This document shows, piece after piece, positions 1 to 31,611 of a DNA stretch of 45,737 nucleotides. Origin of the DNA: Candidatus Aenigmatarchaeota archaeon (GTDB lineage: Archaea; Aenigmatarchaeota; Aenigmatarchaeia; QMZP01; JAFGSV01); assembly GCA_021163005.1 (NCBI GenBank), contig JAGGXP010000023.1:1-45737 (forward strand), given 5' to 3'. Made by a program: the position numbers and the translations under genes. Positions within the stretch are counted from its first letter, which is position 1. Each line of letters begins with the position of its first letter. Under the pieces are notes generated by a model, which was not told where the DNA came from, made no database searches, and saw only the letters and a list, made by a program, of their open reading frames with translations.

Positions 1-60
1 GCGCCAGCGTACTTTCCGCTGAAGTCTGCAGGTGCTTAGTCCGCGCCAGCGTACTTTCCG
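1..60 (-). repeat. 18-nt direct repeat CGGAAAGTACGCTGGCGC (1-18, 43-60) inside the tRNA-Pro intron; identical copy at 1829-1846 (+) in the tRNA-Tyr intron
   Basis: Exact matches read directly from the sequence. Confidence 0.95.
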
Positions 61-186
61 TTGACGCTTTAGTCCGCTTGCTTGGGCTAAAGGGTCATTG
101 AACTCCTGAAGGTGCTTCATGAAGCAGCTTTCTCAGGTCTGGGACTCCCGAAGCCCCGATGCTAGGCCAAGCTACACCACGGTCCC
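1..186 (-). tRNA. tRNA-Pro(CGG), 3' end outside window; BHB introns at 53/54 (131..103, 29 nt) and 58/59 (97..<1)
   Basis: Reverse complement reads GGGACCG TG GTGT AGCTTGGCCTA GCAT C GGGGC TT CGG GA GTCCC AGAC CTGAG [intron] TTCAA [intron]. Intron 1 has a CCTG/CAGG helix with AG|A and AG|T bulges. Intron 2 is placed by homology to the tRNA-Tyr 58/59 intron. TATA-like TTTATA at 219..214. Confidence 0.85.
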
Positions 187-1664: not shown

Positions 1665-1943
1665 CCCGAGGTAGCTCAGACTGGCTAGAGCGATCGGCTG
1701 TAGACGGGCACACCGTGATATATGCACGGTCTTATGAGTGTGTTTGTTGGACGCAGTCGCTCGAAAGAGACCGATAGGTCGGGAGTTCAAGAACCCTTTT
1801 GCGCAGGCATACGCACAAAAGCGTTCCACGGAAAGTACGCTGGCGCAGATTAACGGTCTGCAAGCGCCAAAATACGCTTCCGCCAAAGCGGAGGCAACGC
1901 GCAGGGAAAACGTCAAAGGGTTGGACAAATCTCCCTCTCGGGA
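1665..1943 (+). tRNA. tRNA-Tyr(GTA) with introns at 37/38 (1704-1769, 66 nt) and 58/59 (1791-1928, 138 nt)
   Basis: CCCGAGG/TCTCGGG acceptor stem with C1-G72 and A73; ATCGG/CCGAT anticodon stem; GTA at 1700-1702. The T-loop BHB is GTTC/GGAC with outer helix AACCCTTT/AAAGGGTT. The 37/38 BHB has one G.A mismatch in its central helix. Confidence 0.93.
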
Positions 1944-2834: not shown

Positions 2835-3073
2835 GCCTCGATGGTGTAGTGGCCTAGCATATGGCCCTGTCACGGCCATGACCCGGGTTCAAAGGCACCC
2901 TTTTCCATAAGCATACATGGAAAAGCGCGCTCCGGAAAATACGTTAACAACAAATGAACGGTGCGCAGAGGAGCCGTGTCCGGAAGGGGTATCCATTCCG
3001 CAGGGTTTTGGATGGCAACCTTCTGGAAGAAACTGGCAGACTCTAAAATGTGCTGGAAATCCCGGTCGGGGCG
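2835..3073 (+). tRNA. tRNA-Asp(GTC) with 166-nt intron at 59/60 (2894-3059)
   Basis: GCCTCGA/TCGGGGC acceptor stem, G73, TGGCC CT GTC AC GGCCA anticodon arm. BHB TTCA/TGGA with outer helix GCAC/GTGC. Confidence 0.95.
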
Positions 3074-3990: not shown

Positions 3991-4242
3991 AACTTATTTA
4001 AAAACTAAAGTCTACAAATTCTTTTCAATGGGCCCGTAGCTCAGTCTGGCTAGAGCACCAGACGAGTGTGTTGCACGTCGTGCAGCACCTCAGGTGAAGC
4101 TTTTAATGTCATTAAAAGCGTGTTTAGGACCTTCAGAAATCCCGTGCAATGAACACGGCACTGCAAGAGGTTCCGATGACAGAATAAACCTGGGTGTCGC
4201 GGGTTCGAAGGCTCAAGGGGGCTTCGGCAGCTTACACGTGCA

Positions 4243-4421
4243 TGCCCCCTTAAAGCATTATTCCCCGCTTAAGAGGGCCAACGGCAACGGACAGCAACGC
4301 AAGATGACGGCTAACGCAGGATGAGCAAAGCCGTCCCGAACAGGAACGCAATCCGCCTGCATGCACAGGATGGATAAAGCAGGCTTTAGGCACATCTGCC
4401 CCCTTAAAGCATTATTCCCCG
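4243..4421 (+). repeat. 25-nt direct repeat TGCCCCCTTAAAGCATTATTCCCCG (4243-4267, 4397-4421) in tRNA-Lys intron 3
   Basis: Exact match. Confidence 0.95.
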
Positions 4422-4651
4422 TTAAAAGGGAAGAGAAGATGGGGAAAGGGAATGGTGCACAGGTTCCCCAGTAACAATGAAGAAGGAAAGGGGAATCAGG
4501 ACAGCAGCGGAAAGCCGCAAAGGTCGTGCAGGTCGCGCGGCTCGAACACTACGAACAGGAACGCACACCGCCTGCATGAACATAACGGACAAAGAATAAT
4601 CGAACAGGAACGCAATATGACGACTTGAACAGAATGAACAAGTCGTCTTTA
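4288..4651 (+). repeat. four ~49-nt hairpin repeat units (starts 4288, 4337, 4552, 4601) in tRNA-Lys intron 3
   Basis: Leader CGAACAGGAACGCA (exact x3, variant x1), then 4 nt, a 6-bp stem arm and a 17-18-nt loop. Units occur in pairs spaced exactly 49 nt; the 4552 unit lacks its right arm. Confidence 0.9.
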
Positions 4652-4809
4652 AAAGGTATGCACAAAGCAGGCTTTAAGCCGCATTTAAAAGCTGTCCATG
4701 AGCTGGAAATCCTGCCGGGCCCATTTAAGCTTTTGGCGCAAGCGGAAGTGCCGTAAAAGGTTAACTTTAAATAGGCACGAAGCTGTTATAATTGGATTGA
4801 AGTGATAAC

Positions 4810-27273: not shown

Positions 27274-28466
27274 TTGAGATAAGGTTTGACCCCAAAAAGG
27301 GCATATGGGCAGAGAATGAGGACGCAGACAGGCTGAGGAACAACTCCTTCGGAAGACAGGAAAAGGACAAGCTGTGGCTCATGCCGGAAGAGGCGCTCTA
27401 CATTCTCGACCTGATGAACGGCAGGGCTGTGCGTGGCAAAAAGCAGGCGGGATTTGAAGACATCGTGTCCGCTTATGCAGCGAAAGACCCGAGGATACTG
27501 CTAAAATACAATGCCTACAGGGACTGGCGCGACCGCGGCCTTATAGTCAAAAGGGTTGATGACGGGATTAAGGGCAGCAGCAACAGAGCCGGGCATGTGA
27601 AGAAATATCCGTCAAAGGACATGAAGGTGGCAAAAGGCAGGGGGAAAATCCTTTGGGACGATGACTCGGCCATGGGCATCTACACAGCCGCCGACGCCAG
27701 GACGCTGTATTCGGATTGGTGGCTCGGCCAGATAGGCGTTTACAAGCAGGATAGGGGCAGCGTCCTCAAGCTCAATTTCTTCGAGGTCGTGCTGCTGTCT
27801 AAACATTTCGGCTTTAAGGTGAGGAATGCCAGGACGGGAAAGAGCATCACCGCGAAAAGGATAATGGATGAGATATCCAAGCGCAGGGAATTTGCCCGTT
27901 CAATGTACCAGGCCTACGAGGACTGGAGGATGCGCGGCTACATAGTCAAGACCGGCTTTAAGTTCGGCACCCACTTCAGGATTTACTTTCCAGAGGCATC
28001 GCCTCTCAGGGAAACGTCCAACGGAAAATGGATCCACTCCAAGCATGTCCTTCACATATTTCCCAAGGAAGAGAAGTTGCTGATTTCAGAATGGGCGAGG
28101 GCCGTGCGCGTTGCTCATGGTGTCAGAAAGACTTTCATACTGGGTGTGCCGAAGATAACGAAAAAGGATTGTGTGGACTACCCGGCAGACTTTGTGGCGT
28201 TCAGGCGCAAGAAGAAGGGCAAGGACTGGGTGAGGGAGGCGCCGCCGAAGGACAGGCCGAGGTATCTTCTTGCAGACCTGAGCGAGGAAGAGCACATAGG
28301 CGGCATTGAGCTGGCATCGCTTCTCGCCAAGGCAGGGGGCATGAATCTCAATCTCATACTTTCCATAACAGACAGGGAAACTGCCATAACCTACTACGCG
28401 CTCAACAAGATAAAGATACAGGGCGCGAAGTTCGACTACTACGAGATAGAGTGGCTGAGGCCCTGA
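27270..28466 (+). CDS. endA: tRNA splicing endonuclease, three-unit epsilon2-type
   Basis: 398 aa. Duplicated N-subdomain (PEEALY..YRDWRDRG), a full catalytic unit (KTGFKFGTHFRIY, HS, VAHGVRK) and a beta-type C-terminus ending EIEWLRP; inserted loop WWLGQIGVYKQ. Confidence 0.92.
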   Translation: MIEIRFDPKKGIWAENEDADRLRNNSFGRQEKDKLWLMPEEALYILDLMNGRAVRGKKQAGFEDIVSAYAAKDPRILLKYNAYRDWRDRGLIVKRVDDGIKGSSNRAGHVKKYPSKDMKVAKGRGKILWDDDSAMGIYTAADARTLYSDWWLGQIGVYKQDRGSVLKLNFFEVVLLSKHFGFKVRNARTGKSITAKRIMDEISKRREFARSMYQAYEDWRMRGYIVKTGFKFGTHFRIYFPEASPLRETSNGKWIHSKHVLHIFPKEEKLLISEWARAVRVAHGVRKTFILGVPKITKKDCVDYPADFVAFRRKKKGKDWVREAPPKDRPRYLLADLSEEEHIGGIELASLLAKAGGMNLNLILSITDRETAITYYALNKIKIQGAKFDYYEIEWLRP

Positions 28467-28474
28467 ACCGGTAA

Positions 28475-28575
28475 GTGCCTAAAGACGACTTTGTCCACAC
28501 TGCGCATGTCGTCGGTGTGCGTTTCTGTTCGATTTTGTCCGTTCCGTATATGTCGTCGGTGTGCGTTTCTGTTCG
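28475..28575 (-). repeat. two copies of the tRNA-Lys intron hairpin unit (26-nt exact direct repeat at 28506-28531 and 28550-28575)
   Basis: Reverse complement CGAACAGAAACGCACACCGACGAC...GGACAAAGTCGTCTTTAGGCAC aligns with 4337-4393 and 4552-4651. Confidence 0.9.
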
Positions 28576-28629
28576 TCCCCTTCAGTTTTACGCGTCAGCG
28601 GAAAACAGGCTTACTGTTCTCGCAGTTTC

Positions 28630-28684
28630 AAGACAAATGTCTTAATTTTTAATACGAAATACATTTAAAGACAAATGCCTTAAT
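28630..28684. promoter_or_regulatory. two palindromic operator-like boxes AAGACA-AA-TG(T/C)CTT flanking the TATA box of the HEPN-like/MNT pair
   Basis: AAGACAAATGTCTTAAT at 28630-28646 and AAGACAAATGCCTTAAT at 28668-28684. Confidence 0.55.
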
Positions 28685-28691
28685 AACATTC

Positions 28692-29105
28692 ATGAAATAC
28701 GAAAAACACCGCGAGGCTCTGAAGGAGGTAATGGATACCATAAGCAAGGCACTTGACGATCCGGAAGGGCTGACGGGCCACCAGAGAAGAATCATTTCCA
28801 TGCTCTCCATGGGAACGGCGCAACTGGTCGAGATGTATCTCCACAAGCTCAGGGTAATGAAGCCCGGCGGGCAGGTAAAGCACGACTGGTTCAAACAAAA
28901 CGAGAGGAACATCAGACTAAAGCTTTCGCCGCTTCTGACTACAAGAATAACGGAGATTCCGCAAATGAACGAAATATTGTACATGGCTTCCGAGATAGAG
29001 AAGAACAGGGATGAGATATTCTACGGCTCGCCGCTTCCGACTGACAGGCTGCTCAAGGAGAAGATAGAGACTTTCCTTGAGCTCAAGAAACTCGTGGGTG
29101 AGTAG
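28692..29105 (+). CDS. HEPN-like protein (putative toxin)
   Basis: All-alpha 137 aa with an R-x4-Y motif (RDEIFY); adjacent to an MNT gene. Confidence 0.6.
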   Translation: MKYEKHREALKEVMDTISKALDDPEGLTGHQRRIISMLSMGTAQLVEMYLHKLRVMKPGGQVKHDWFKQNERNIRLKLSPLLTTRITEIPQMNEILYMASEIEKNRDEIFYGSPLPTDRLLKEKIETFLELKKLVGE

Positions 29106-29714
29106 GTGGAAAGGAAGAAATATGCAATCATCGCAGCGGCTTTCATCATGAACAGGCTGCCTTCGCGGCAGTTCAAAAAACTGAGAAACGTCATCCTTTT
29201 CGGCTCTGTTGCCATGGATACGGGAAGCGATGAAAGCGATATAGACCTTTTTTTCGACCTGGATGCGACACAGAGAGAAACCGCTTCTGTTAAGGACGTG
29301 CTCGAAAAGGCTGCTGACGAATTCTGTCTTAGTGCAGAGGCCCTGAAATTCAAAATGGCAGGGATAGACAATCCCGTATCGGTCCATGCCGGCAGGCTGG
29401 AAGAGTGGGAAAATCTGAAGCCGTCCATAGAAAGCACGGGCATCCTGCTCTACGGAAAATACGTGCCGGAGGGGAGGTCCCAGAAGAGATATGCCATTTT
29501 CTACTGGGACAGGCTGAAAACACCTCTGCGCGGTGCTTTCCTTAACAAGGTCTACGGATATACGGCTGGCGGCAGGCACTATTCAGGATTTGCAGAAAGG
29601 CTCGGCGGGATGAGAATAGGCAAGAGCGCCGTAATGGTTCCTCTCAGAAGAAAAACCGAATTCGTCTCACTGCTCGAAAAGTACGGCATAGATTACAGGA
29701 CAGTGGAAGTTTAG
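29106..29714 (+). CDS. minimal nucleotidyltransferase (MNT) with extra C-terminal domain
   Basis: ILFGSVA...SDIDLF motif; C-terminal GGMRIGKSAVMVP segment. Confidence 0.85.
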   Translation: MERKKYAIIAAAFIMNRLPSRQFKKLRNVILFGSVAMDTGSDESDIDLFFDLDATQRETASVKDVLEKAADEFCLSAEALKFKMAGIDNPVSVHAGRLEEWENLKPSIESTGILLYGKYVPEGRSQKRYAIFYWDRLKTPLRGAFLNKVYGYTAGGRHYSGFAERLGGMRIGKSAVMVPLRRKTEFVSLLEKYGIDYRTVEV

Positions 29715-29871: not shown

Positions 29872-31611
29872 ATGCAGCCCGAGGAAGCAGGCACATCCGG
29901 TTTCACAGTGAGGTCTGTGTCGATTGCGCTGGTTCTGACGGTTTTCCTTCTCGTGATTTCGAGCTACATAGCGCTGAAGATAGGCGCGCTGCCGTGGCCC
30001 ATAATATTCAGTGCAGTAGCCGCTGGCGCGCTGCTCCAGATGTTCTCAAGGTTCGGCCGCAGGACAACGAAGCATGAGATGAATGTCGCGCAGGCCGGCG
30101 GAACCATAGGCGGGCTGGTGGCTTCGGGTGTTGTCTTCACCATACCCGGGATACTCTACCTGCAGTCGCAGGGCATCGCTGTCTCCATGCCGGGAGCGCT
30201 GTCGCTTGCGGCTGTATGCGTGACAGCCGGCGTCATGGGTGTGCTGCTGTCAGTCCCCATGAGGCGCGTGTTCGTGGATGAGGAGAACCTGCCTTATCCA
30301 AGCGGAACAGCCGGCGCAGAGGTCGTGAAGGCCGAGTCGGGCATAGGCAGGAGCACCTTCTTCCTTGCGCTCGCGCTTTCTCTCACAGGCATGTTCGTGC
30401 TGCTCAGGGAAATGTGGTTCCCGGCAGGATGGTCGCTTCCGCTGGCACCGGAAATCGGGCTCACCCTTGCGCTTTATCCCATGCCGCTGGCTATCGGGAT
30501 AGGATACCTGCTGGGACCGAAGGCTGCTGTGAATTCATGGTTCGGCGGCTCGTTCATTGGATGGATGGTGCTGATTCCACTGATGGCTCTGGCAGGGATC
30601 GCCGCGCCCGCCGTAGGCGCAGGCATAATGCAGAACGCAGGCATGGGCATTGTGATAGGCTCAGGAATAGGCTTCTTCGCGTCCTATGTCATCCCAAGGG
30701 CCGGAAGGATATTCAGGCCTCTTTTCAGGTTCCGCGGCATGCCATGGTATACACGGAGCACGCCGATTTTCTCTGTCATAGCCTTCGCCGTGCTCTCGGC
30801 AGCCGGCATAAACCCCCTCGGCGCAGCAGTGGCTGTGCTCGGCGTCTGGGTGATGGTCAGCGTGACAGCCATGATGACTGGCGAGACTGACATAGATCCA
30901 CTGGAGCAGTTCGGGATAATCATAGGACTTGTTGCAATGGAACTGTTCGCGCTGCTCGGCATGCAGCTTGACTACCTCTCGGCGTTCATGATAGTCGCAT
31001 TCGTTTCAATAGCGTCCGCAGTGGCAGGCGACATAGGTCACGACTACAAGTCAGCGAAGATACTCGGGACAAAGCCAAAGGACATCATAAAGGTTGACAT
31101 GATTGCCGCAGTGGCAGCCGGCCTGCTGGCGCCCTTTGTGCTCAGCATTATAGTCGGCGCGTACGGCCCGGAATTCTTCACGCCTTCCATGCCGGCGCCG
31201 CAGGCGCAGATGGTCGCTGGTTCCATCTTCGGCTTCGCCCATCCGCTGGCGTTCCTGGCAGGATTCGTGTTTGCCTTCGTCTGGGTAGTGGCTGAGACAC
31301 TGACAAAGCGGCATGCTCCAATCCTTCCGATGGTATTCGGCATCGGCCTGTTCCTCGGCATGGTCCTTGGCATCCTCCTTGCCATAGGCGGTCTTGTAAG
31401 GTACTGGACTGACAGGAAGTATGCAGGCATCTACACATCAGCAGGCATCATAACCGCGGCAGGCATAATGGGAGGAGAAGGCATAGCCGGCCTCGGCTAC
31501 AAATCCATGCTCGTCGCTGGTATGGAACCGGCATCATCCATTGTATTATTGATGCCCGTTTTCATCATCGTTCTCGGGGCTTCTCTTGCATTAAGAAAGA
31601 GGATGTTATGA
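29872..31611 (+). CDS. OPT-family oligopeptide transporter
   Basis: Many TM helices; YIALKIG, NLPYPSGTAGAEV, AGDIGHDYKS, PAPQA, GIMGGEG. Confidence 0.88.
   Translation: MQPEEAGTSGFTVRSVSIALVLTVFLLVISSYIALKIGALPWPIIFSAVAAGALLQMFSRFGRRTTKHEMNVAQAGGTIGGLVASGVVFTIPGILYLQSQGIAVSMPGALSLAAVCVTAGVMGVLLSVPMRRVFVDEENLPYPSGTAGAEVVKAESGIGRSTFFLALALSLTGMFVLLREMWFPAGWSLPLAPEIGLTLALYPMPLAIGIGYLLGPKAAVNSWFGGSFIGWMVLIPLMALAGIAAPAVGAGIMQNAGMGIVIGSGIGFFASYVIPRAGRIFRPLFRFRGMPWYTRSTPIFSVIAFAVLSAAGINPLGAAVAVLGVWVMVSVTAMMTGETDIDPLEQFGIIIGLVAMELFALLGMQLDYLSAFMIVAFVSIASAVAGDIGHDYKSAKILGTKPKDIIKVDMIAAVAAGLLAPFVLSIIVGAYGPEFFTPSMPAPQAQMVAGSIFGFAHPLAFLAGFVFAFVWVVAETLTKRHAPILPMVFGIGLFLGMVLGILLAIGGLVRYWTDRKYAGIYTSAGIITAAGIMGGEGIAGLGYKSMLVAGMEPASSIVLLMPVFIIVLGASLALRKRML

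Follow-up and report, generated by a model that had tools for sequence, protein, structure and literature searches.

Why should DNA that resembles a transfer RNA (tRNA) intron lie in antisense orientation directly behind endA, the gene of the splicing endonuclease that removes such introns? The question is raised by the contig analysed here in its whole length of 45,737 nt (the window), which is contig C14 of G000, a metagenome bin of 945 kb in 43 contigs that is 91% complete and whose EndA has its relatives in named Aenigmatarchaeota metagenome-assembled genomes (MAGs). The minus strand of 28475-28575 consists of two copies of a hairpin unit of ~45-58 nt, and the repeat begins at the 9th base past the endA stop codon. 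A preliminary description of this DNA had quoted the same minus-strand reading, which sequence retrieval confirmed, and had matched it to the intron of a tRNA gene at 4030-4722. A BLAST search against the whole genome bore out this match (4551-4651, 75.5% over 102 nt, E 7.9e-14). Two explanations had been offered, namely that the excised intron pairs with endA mRNA and regulates it, or that the unit is a dispersed mobile repeat which colonises tRNA introns and intergenic gaps. The evidence presented here favours a spreading repeat over intron-to-endA feedback: the endA-flank sequence is probably an orphan, partly degenerate composite of spreading, nested hairpin modules and plays a passive role.

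The 14-nt core of the unit, CGAACAGRAACGCA, is present six times in the window (positions 4288, 4337, 4552 and 4601 of the plus strand, 28531 and 28575 of the minus strand) against 0.64 expected occurrences, and 0 of 100 shuffled sequences reached six. An inverted-repeat search pairs 4551-4593 with 28534-28576 (43 nt, 81%) and 4552-4594 with 28489-28531 (43 nt, 77%). As had been claimed, the endA flank and 4385-4393 have TTTAGGCAC in common, and the core search found no non-intron copy elsewhere in the window. The order that had been proposed for both places, a unit without right arm followed by a complete unit, applies to the endA flank, where the distal unit is the truncated one, and does not apply to the intron at 4552-4680: there the first unit is not truncated, and the second is nested in its loop, with the right arm GCAGGC at about 4666-4671. 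The repeated stretch beside endA also turned out to be longer than described before and covers about 28463-28632 (~165 nt). The best matches of the endA copy lie outside the intron of the window, with 58 of 58 identical positions in C2:529-586, 54 of 54 in C28:38666-38719 and 46 of 46 in C11:25730-25775.

Many contigs of the assembly end in these repeats, as would be expected if a repeat had been joined wrongly to endA. However, the junction is bridged by contigs from three studies (28038-28504, 28134-28504 and 28308-28504; runs X1, X2 and X4), all of which continue past unique endA sequence for 30 nt of the unit and show 0 differences, and other contigs cross the unit into unique downstream sequence (28494-28775 and 28546-29164). 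Contig depth rises ~10-fold over the unit. The endA-repeat junction is real and no assembly artefact; the chance of a chimera is close to nil.

What is the unit, and where else does it occur? A complete unit has a conserved 14-nt head, four variable bases, a 6-bp stem and a loop of 17-18 nt that ends in ..GGACAAA. Units stand in tandem or inside one another's loops, and their arrays are closed by TTTAGGCAC or a variant of it. An alignment of 14 units shows changes on both sides in three of the six stem pairs (A-U/C-G, G-C/U-A and G-C/A-U). Stem cells are paired in 83% of cases, the unpaired ones coming from three rows with a loop that is one base shorter; the covariation score was reached by 0 of 500 shuffles and every slid register scores lower. 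An nhmmer profile built from 21 units detected 36 copies at 16 loci of the genome at a cut-off of E<=0.01, one pair among these being the same sequence at two overlapping contig ends. Fourteen of the 16 loci are linked to tRNA genes as T-loop introns, 5' leaders or 3' trailers (Table 1), and at all 14 the unit has the orientation of the tRNA. Closely similar units are found in unrelated tRNA genes, and identical stretches of 46-58 nt are present on four contigs. Copy number, nesting and the identity of distant copies fit the dispersed mobile repeat of the preliminary description, and so do the confinement of the family to G000 among 41 genomes and the lack of an element at the endA stop codon in the two closest relatives.

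Repetitive extragenic palindromes (REP) with their bacterial interspersed mosaic elements (BIME) and miniature inverted-repeat transposable elements (MITEs) are short, non-coding, multi-copy hairpin repeats with compensatory stem changes, tandem or nested arrays and orphan copies after stop codons. The present units resemble them in each of these respects, including the conserved hairpin. They differ in their placement, which in REP and MITE elements is mostly intergenic and behind protein genes: 14 of the 16 unit loci are in tRNA transcription units and all of these are co-oriented, with two of 16 elsewhere. No terminal inverted repeats were seen. Other identities were rejected: inspection by eye of the unit and of the G module (see below) revealed neither proper C/D boxes of a C/D-box small RNA nor the tandem G-A pairs of a kink-turn, and a CRISPR array was dropped because there are no spacers.

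The unit belongs to a larger set of modules. By BLAST of G000 against itself, 24,375 bases (2.6%) are repeated in 187 intervals at 131 loci; the largest linked set has 47 loci built from a handful of module types, and nearly all of these loci lie in or beside genes for tRNA, 16S or 23S ribosomal RNA (rRNA) or RNase P RNA. The modules are listed in Table 1 under names and boundaries of our own. P modules interrupt the genes of 16S rRNA (C23:11610-13407, 1798 nt versus a model of 1478 positions, ~320 longer) and 23S rRNA (C23:14030-18280, 4251 nt versus 2987, ~1260 longer), and P-type sequence adjoins the RNase P RNA gene on its 5' side (C23:20211-20633; 71 bits, below gathering threshold). Trailer-type P modules start 2-11 nt past tRNA 3' ends (C2, C26, C39, C42 and G001:90289). 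Rfam had no module match in the window at the gathering threshold, none at E<=0.1 on 11 loci with units, G, R, H or trailer repeats, and none at E<=1 on orphan candidates from C34 and C4.

The endA flank can be read as such a composite. Its longest match, C21:6818-6991 (69% over 176 nt, E 5.5e-19, covering 28463-28629 by BLAST), has the same build in an alignment of both sequences (A1): a G module, an R hairpin before AAACTGAAGGGGA, two units in the loop of the G-module hairpin and then ..GGTTCAG. AAACTGAAGGGGA is identical in L006, the endA locus of a relative, and the build is that of a tRNA intron in C21. The loop of the G-module hairpin is empty or short in C2, C13 and L031, a locus of the sister genome G002, and is filled with units in C21 and at endA, where both units sit within it. 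The proximal unit has the 14-nt core, a 6-bp stem (GACGAC 28508-28513/GTCGTC 28484-28489) and an 18-nt loop. The last bases of the module, TCA of CGGTTCAG, are the complement of the endA stop codon TGA (28464-28466), and in L006 the G-module end GGTT[C/T]AG also abuts the last endA codon. Further 5' of CTTGAAACTG the G module is degenerate, and beyond 28632 its reading is weak and by eye. The G-module reading of the endA flank comes from A1 and BLAST; the G hidden Markov model (HMM) gives no call there at E<=0.01. The endA copy is a mosaic of a C21-like build and a C2-like unit. Because the proximal unit is identical to its C2, C28 and C11 counterparts over the 58, 54 and 46 positions given above, it was probably copied or converted recently.

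By this explanation the modules have, in this lineage, spread through those parts of stable-RNA transcripts that are discarded: the introns, 5' leaders and 3' trailers of tRNAs, insertions in rRNA and the RNase P RNA flank. At endA the backbone would be a G module in antisense to the gene, with its end on the stop codon, into which the R hairpin and two CGAACAG units would have been inserted later. They presumably spread as DNA, with hairpin loops or short TCAG-like sites as points of insertion and with gene conversion from one copy to another. Modules would be retained at places where they do no harm, be it through RNA processing or through their intergenic position. That the endA 3' flank is complementary to RNA of introns or trailers would then be a by-product and not a selected feedback. 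TCAG is present on both sides of the G modules in C2 and C21, like a target-site duplication, and was seen in these two contexts only.

A composite that is built like the 3' part of the C21 T-loop intron could also be the relic of a tRNA gene or trailer that once stood beside endA and lost its exons, the more so as modules elsewhere are almost always tied to stable-RNA genes. However, this is very improbable. Unlike in a tRNA intron, no exons were found on either side of the endA-flank copy by our own tRNA scanner or by Rfam: no exon-like sequence is present, the scanner detected no acceptor/T-arm pair near 28000-29000, and Rfam gave nothing at E<=0.1 in C14:26967-30135. One side of the copy is the conserved EndA C-terminus ...EW[LM][RK]P, and in L006 the space from one stop codon to the next is taken up exactly by the module.

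Is the endA copy conserved in relatives? The preliminary description had proposed that it should be conserved and co-vary with the intron in sister genomes, and this expectation failed. A 169-nt query of the composite had BLAST matches in G000 only and in 0 of 40 relatives (41 genomes searched; the 40 comprise nine from the genus, a further four from the family and 27 from the order). In an EndA tree of 27 rows G000 groups with L001 and L002, followed by L003 and L004 and then by L009, L006, (L005, L007) and (L008, L027). HMM scans covered 29 endA loci with about 180 kb, of which a close clade comprises 11 genomes. There is no module at the endA stop codon in L001 and L002, the closest by the EndA tree, nor in L005, L007, L008, L009, L027 and L028, and seven of the 11 close relatives have no element there. 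In L003 and L004 a sense P module follows the endA stop codon and is itself followed by antisense P pieces. In L006 a plain antisense G module takes up exactly the space from the endA stop codon to that of a beta-propeller gene which converges on endA. L006 belongs to the complete genome G001 (742 kb), which has T-loop introns of short single P modules and whose only G module is the copy at endA; about 8.5 kb of G001 are masked. The genomes of L003 and L004 (G002 and G003) have G modules at the 3' ends of T-loop introns and in a tRNA trailer. Outer-clade endA loci have no module, with the exception of one unit-like hairpin upstream of endA in L015, a distant DPANN MAG. This hairpin (L015:2925-2962, nhmmer E 9.3e-05) has the stem GACGAC/GTCGTC, an 18-nt loop and a TCTTTAA tail. 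The L015 genome has no repeat family of it, apart from one weak 29-nt match upstream of another gene, and the hairpin may be promoter-linked.

These data bear on the feedback explanation, by which intron, leader or trailer RNA with sense units would pair with the antisense units in a putative endA 3' untranslated region (UTR) and tune EndA. The complementarity itself amounts to 77-81% with the intron of the window and to 100% over 58 nt with the C2 trailer unit, and predicted duplexes of -122.8, -112.9, -130.5 and -162.0 kcal/mol compare with shuffled means of -59, -64, -45 and -59; however, each unit also folds on itself. A read-through 3' UTR is possible, with the first T5 run of the plus strand past the stop codon at 28646-28650, and pairing of free tRNA introns with mRNAs is described for yeast in the accessible part of PMC13079951. 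That case shares the trans pairing with an mRNA, but concerns a eukaryote and coding sequences in place of the 3' flank of an endonuclease gene, where pairing is hypothetical. Many random intergenic copies, which the preliminary description had set against feedback, were not found in the genome-wide count (two of 16 loci away from tRNA genes), so the endA copy is not one of many such copies. Modules recur at the endA stop codon in four of 11 close relatives, yet the first module after the stop in L003 and L004 has sense orientation, the unit family is absent from all 40 relatives searched, and the closest of these, L001 and L002, lack any element. The antisense G module at endA of G001 has no other copy in its genome, sense or otherwise (the 8.5 kb masked weaken this slightly), and pairing therefore cannot be what keeps that module at endA. 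Because the unit family is young, confined to G000 and accompanied by no element in the nearest relatives, unit-based complementarity cannot be an old, conserved device. We consider feedback quite unlikely. Base pairing as a conserved function is contradicted by the sense-oriented modules of L003 and L004 and by the absence of any sense G copy from G001; neither argues against a structural role.

Such a role could be exerted in cis without pairing in trans: the element may be a 3' end or terminator hairpin, a decoy that is cleaved by EndA in an autoregulatory manner, or the template of an antisense transcript, which in this variant would start in the A+T-rich stretch 28641-28669. Bacterial RNase III and RNase E autoregulate via sites in their own mRNAs. 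A target in its own transcript would give endA a similar circuit; the likeness is an analogy only, and a cleavage motif in the endA flank is hypothetical. Modules start exactly at stop codons in G000, L003, L004 and L006 and also at C11:25507 and G001:632339, and the arrangement of a module at a 3' end recurs after the tRNA 3' ends given above. Two orphan positions are common to G000 and G001 in spite of differing content. T4 runs of the plus strand follow the hairpins at 28533-28536 and 28586-28589, but no T5 run is located within the element; the minus strand has TTTAAAT at 28663-28669. A scan of the endA flank for bulge-helix-bulge motifs gave three hits on the plus and two on the minus strand, yet this is background level (about one spurious hit per 100 nt), and similar spurious hits are found inside tRNA genes. 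Seven of 11 close relatives manage without any element. Taken jointly, the three cis variants are in our opinion unlikely.

How well does a passive stray copy account for the position beside endA? Several observations speak against it. Modules outside stable-RNA genes are very rare, with three orphan loci in G000 (endA flank, C11:25497-25993 and C34:8004-8099) and two in the complete genome G001, which makes it a priori unlikely that one landed beside endA by chance. No unit locus other than the endA copy is antisense to both of its flanking genes. Intron-type modules begin at the endA stop codon in four of the 11 close-clade genomes (G000, L003, L004 and L006), while the P and G HMMs had no match elsewhere in the 29 endA loci (~180 kb) and the unit HMM had a single further one, that of L015, which precedes the endA start by ~40 nt. 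G modules of different genomes are 79-90% identical, the EndA proteins of these genomes being 72-74% identical to that of G000, and this conservation could reflect selection. A machinery for spreading is not apparent either: in contrast to REP and BIME elements, no Y1 transposase (RAYT/TnpA) accompanies the repeat (Y1_Tnp, PF01797, 0 matches in the 91%-complete genome), and the TnpB-type domain PF07282 had one match of 19.6 bits, below cut-off, in the same genome.

If the module insertions at the endA stop codon are independent events, they amount to a strong enrichment; if there was one old insertion with turnover of content, they are one coincidence. Roughly one gene in twenty handles tRNA (our estimate, uncounted), and one coincidence beside endA is therefore unremarkable. 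Descent from one insertion, or a preference of the modules for TCAG-like targets, is favoured by the identical junction and orientation of the G modules in G000 and L006. However, the genes downstream are not the same, and lineages placed between the two on the EndA tree have no G module. In a bolder reading the endA 3' end would be, in this Aenigmatarchaeota clade, a long-lived, selected docking place for whatever tRNA-intron modules are current, which would tie the supply of EndA to the intron load, with an endA or antisense transcript that pairs with or mimics the RNA processed by EndA. We regard such a docking place as unlikely. In a wider version the three orphan loci after genes of tRNA-handling enzymes, EndA, a valyl-tRNA synthetase (ValRS)-like protein and cysteinyl-tRNA synthetase (CysRS), would constitute a small regulon.

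The orphan census covers G000 and G001. The C11 orphan follows a small open reading frame (ORF) downstream of the ValRS-like class-I synthetase, and the C34 orphan is an antisense P module downstream of CysRS and an 86-aa ORF. All three G000 orphans are situated within about 310 nt downstream of genes of tRNA-handling enzymes, a post hoc observation with n=3. In G001, 21 regions are similar to the module library of G000, and all but two are in or beside tRNA or (presumed) rRNA genes; a P module at 632335-632472 follows the ortholog of the small ORF that carries the C11 orphan. Both genomes thus have orphans in the endA flank and behind the small ORF that follows the ValRS-like gene. Three further candidates were not counted as orphans: C4:23318-23423 lies at a contig end and by hand reading resembles the beginning of a tRNA gene, C8:828-913 matches weakly and has a stop codon, identified by eye, no more than about 50 nt away, and C23:20211-20381 adjoins the RNase P RNA gene.

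Table 1. Positions of the repeat units, genes and modules considered; positions without contig name refer to the window, minus denotes the complementary strand, and A1 is the alignment of the endA flank with C21.
Feature	Position	Strand	Basis
endA, 398 aa	27270..28466	+	ORF; Pfam; full-length PDB 4fz2_A match
CGGTTCAG, 3' end of G-module backbone	28463..28470	-	A1
TTTAGGCAC tail, closes unit arrays	28475..28483	-	sequence, array comparison
Proximal complete unit	28476..28531	-	nhmmer E 7.5e-16; 58/58 identity to C2:529-586
Distal unit without right arm	28532..28575	-	nhmmer E 5.9e-05, model positions 1-42
AAGGGGA, 5' arm of G-module hairpin	28576..28582	-	A1
Inserted R-type hairpin ...GAGAACAG..CTGTTTTCCGC...GTAAAACTG	28583..28622	-	A1 with C21; repeated AAACTG flanks
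CTTGAAACTG, upstream part of G-module backbone	28623..28632	-	A1; weak
Two ORFs: 137 aa (no family), 202-aa nucleotidyltransferase	28692..29714	+	ORFs, Pfam
tRNA gene running off the start	1-186	-	hand reading, scanner
tRNA gene, anticodon GTA, T-loop intron	1665-1942	+	hand reading, scanner
tRNA gene, anticodon GTC, T-loop intron	2835-3072	+	hand reading, scanner
tRNA gene (tRNA-Lys of the preliminary description)	4030..4722	+	acceptor GGGCCCG/CGGGCCC, T stem GCGGG/CCTGC (own scanner)
Two tandem units inside T-loop intron	4288..4394	+	core, repeat search, nhmmer
Nested unit pair, same T-loop intron; reference copy of the preliminary description	4552..4680	+	sequence, BLAST, nhmmer
Units in T-loop introns (7 loci)	C4; C14 4288-4680; C21; C23 start joined to C24 start; C23 9686-10058; C25; C28 27.7 kb		nhmmer and tRNA reading
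Units in 5' leaders, just upstream of tRNA 5' ends (4 loci)	C1; C9; C13; C29		
Units at far end of long tRNA 3' trailers (3 loci)	C2; C28 38.7 kb; C42		
Orphan units (2 loci)	C11:25676-25785; endA flank		
Module unit, CGAACAG-type hairpin			self-BLAST set
Module G, GGGGAATCAGG...CCCCTGCGGTTCAG			self-BLAST set
Module H, ...GCCCCCTTAAAGCATTATTCCCC			self-BLAST set
Module P, ACCCTTTT-hairpin-AAAAGCG..CGGAAA			self-BLAST set
Module R, GCGGAAGC..GGGAAC..GTTCCC..			self-BLAST set
Tandem trailer repeat, ~120 nt			self-BLAST set

The tRNA genes that harbour the modules largely escape standard tools. Rfam, or ARAGORN with introns allowed, calls seven tRNAs in the whole genome and none in the window, where both missed four tRNA genes, each of which has a T-loop intron. 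Our own scanner for T arms split by an insertion returned 47 candidates, of which about 28 were judged plausible; the gene models combine this scanner with hand reading. Most of the tRNA genes have a T-loop intron after TTCRA and many have further introns, and interruption by modules explains the low count of the standard tools. The T-loop introns of the window measure 138, 166 and ~500 nt in the genes at 1665-1942, 2835-3072 and 4030-4722. In the first two the intron ends form canonical bulge-helix-bulge motifs with 3-nt bulges, and the cuts restore a 7-nt loop. The motif scan misses the intron of 4030-4722, the central helix of which holds two G-U pairs. This gene, tentatively of isotype Lys(UUU) from the hand reading, has further introns near the anticodon. 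Its ortholog L031 in the sister genome G002 has a short T-loop intron of one P and one G module and an extra D-arm intron that is absent here. Intron content appears to turn over quickly between sister genomes.

To which type does the enzyme belong? The catalytic domain PF01974 (E 6.7e-28) covers residues 211-298 and the N-terminal domain PF02778 residues 14-64 of the window EndA. Residues 14-398 match residues 17-387 of PDB 4fz2_A (395 aa, E 1.4e-87), which we take to be the ARMAN-2 enzyme. A single chain of ~390-400 aa with N-terminal and catalytic domains and about 100 further residues corresponds to the epsilon2 type, and by this predicted build the window EndA is of the three-unit (epsilon2-like) form. 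This form is common to 29 loci from MAGs of Aenigmatarchaeota and other DPANN archaea. In 2018 the epsilon2 type was known, according to the accessible part of PMC5829648, only from Micrarchaeum-like archaea, and the three-unit EndA is hereby extended beyond the lineage of its description. ARMAN-2 combines a three-unit EndA with T-loop introns at 59/60 (PMC3239211, in part), and incomplete tRNA sets are reported from some DPANN genomes (PMC5829648, in part). As far as the available text of both papers goes, G000 resembles ARMAN-2 and Micrarchaeota in its single three-unit EndA of ~395-400 aa, its T-loop introns at position 59/60 and its tRNA set that is incomplete by software. It is unlike them in being an Aenigmatarchaeota relative, with far longer introns that are built from repeats.

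Near-identical introns in different tRNA genes and positions are known from Thermoproteales, where copying was inferred and the hosts have an endonuclease of broad specificity (Fujishima et al. 2010, as described in the accessible parts of PMC4090602 and PMC3239211). Similar sequences across tRNA genes imply copying here as well. Compared with what these parts describe, the introns of G000 are modular, nested and up to about 500 nt long; the same modules are also found in leaders, trailers, rRNA genes, the flank of RNase P RNA and as exon-less orphans by protein genes; and the units have no bulge-helix-bulge ends detectable in our own scan. A literature search that left out most subscription journals found nothing on tRNA introns or such repeats of Aenigmatarchaeota, and neither introns of nested shared modules, nor modules of this kind that recur in leaders, trailers, rRNA and the flanks of protein genes, nor a copy at an endonuclease gene. 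An Asgard archaea preprint reports repeated intron gain and identifies no route. The present genome touches the question of how archaeal tRNA introns arrive and move, and displays the copying directly in identical 58-mers, in nesting and in modules that have also reached leaders, trailers, rRNA and the flanks of a few protein genes. Turnover is fast, the CGAACAG unit having been found in none of the nine other genus genomes searched, and the mechanism is testable by filled versus empty sites across sister genomes. Should the endA-flank copies be functional after all, endA would be the first archaeal splicing endonuclease gene wired to its own substrates. The observations are most notable as a wider picture of modular nested repeats in nearly all stable-RNA genes, missed tRNA genes and an epsilon2-type EndA.

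Some minor observations concern the neighbourhood of endA and the repeats of other contigs. The composite and the two ORFs at 28692..29714 separate endA from a transporter gene at 29872, which directly follows endA in L001, L002 and L008. The 137-aa ORF and the nucleotidyltransferase are a candidate inserted two-gene cassette, putatively of toxin-antitoxin-like type. Tandem ~120-nt repeats (AGCCTTTTCTGGCCGAGGCATG...) follow tRNA 3' ends at C28:38840-39100, C28:2-130, C3:26999-27252 and C39:1-110 and end in a shared stretch of ~90 nt plus CGAACAG units. Contigs that end inside the repeats include C2, C3, C23, C24, C25, C28 and C39; the starts of C23 and C24 agree in sequence but are oppositely oriented, and the two contigs are probably continuous through one T-loop intron. 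The region C13:10440-10815 comprises an interrupted but complete tRNA gene, then a G module and behind this a second copy of the gene's own 3' exon, ATCCTGCCCCCCCGCA, which suggests duplication of the exon end during module insertion, or alternative 3' exons.

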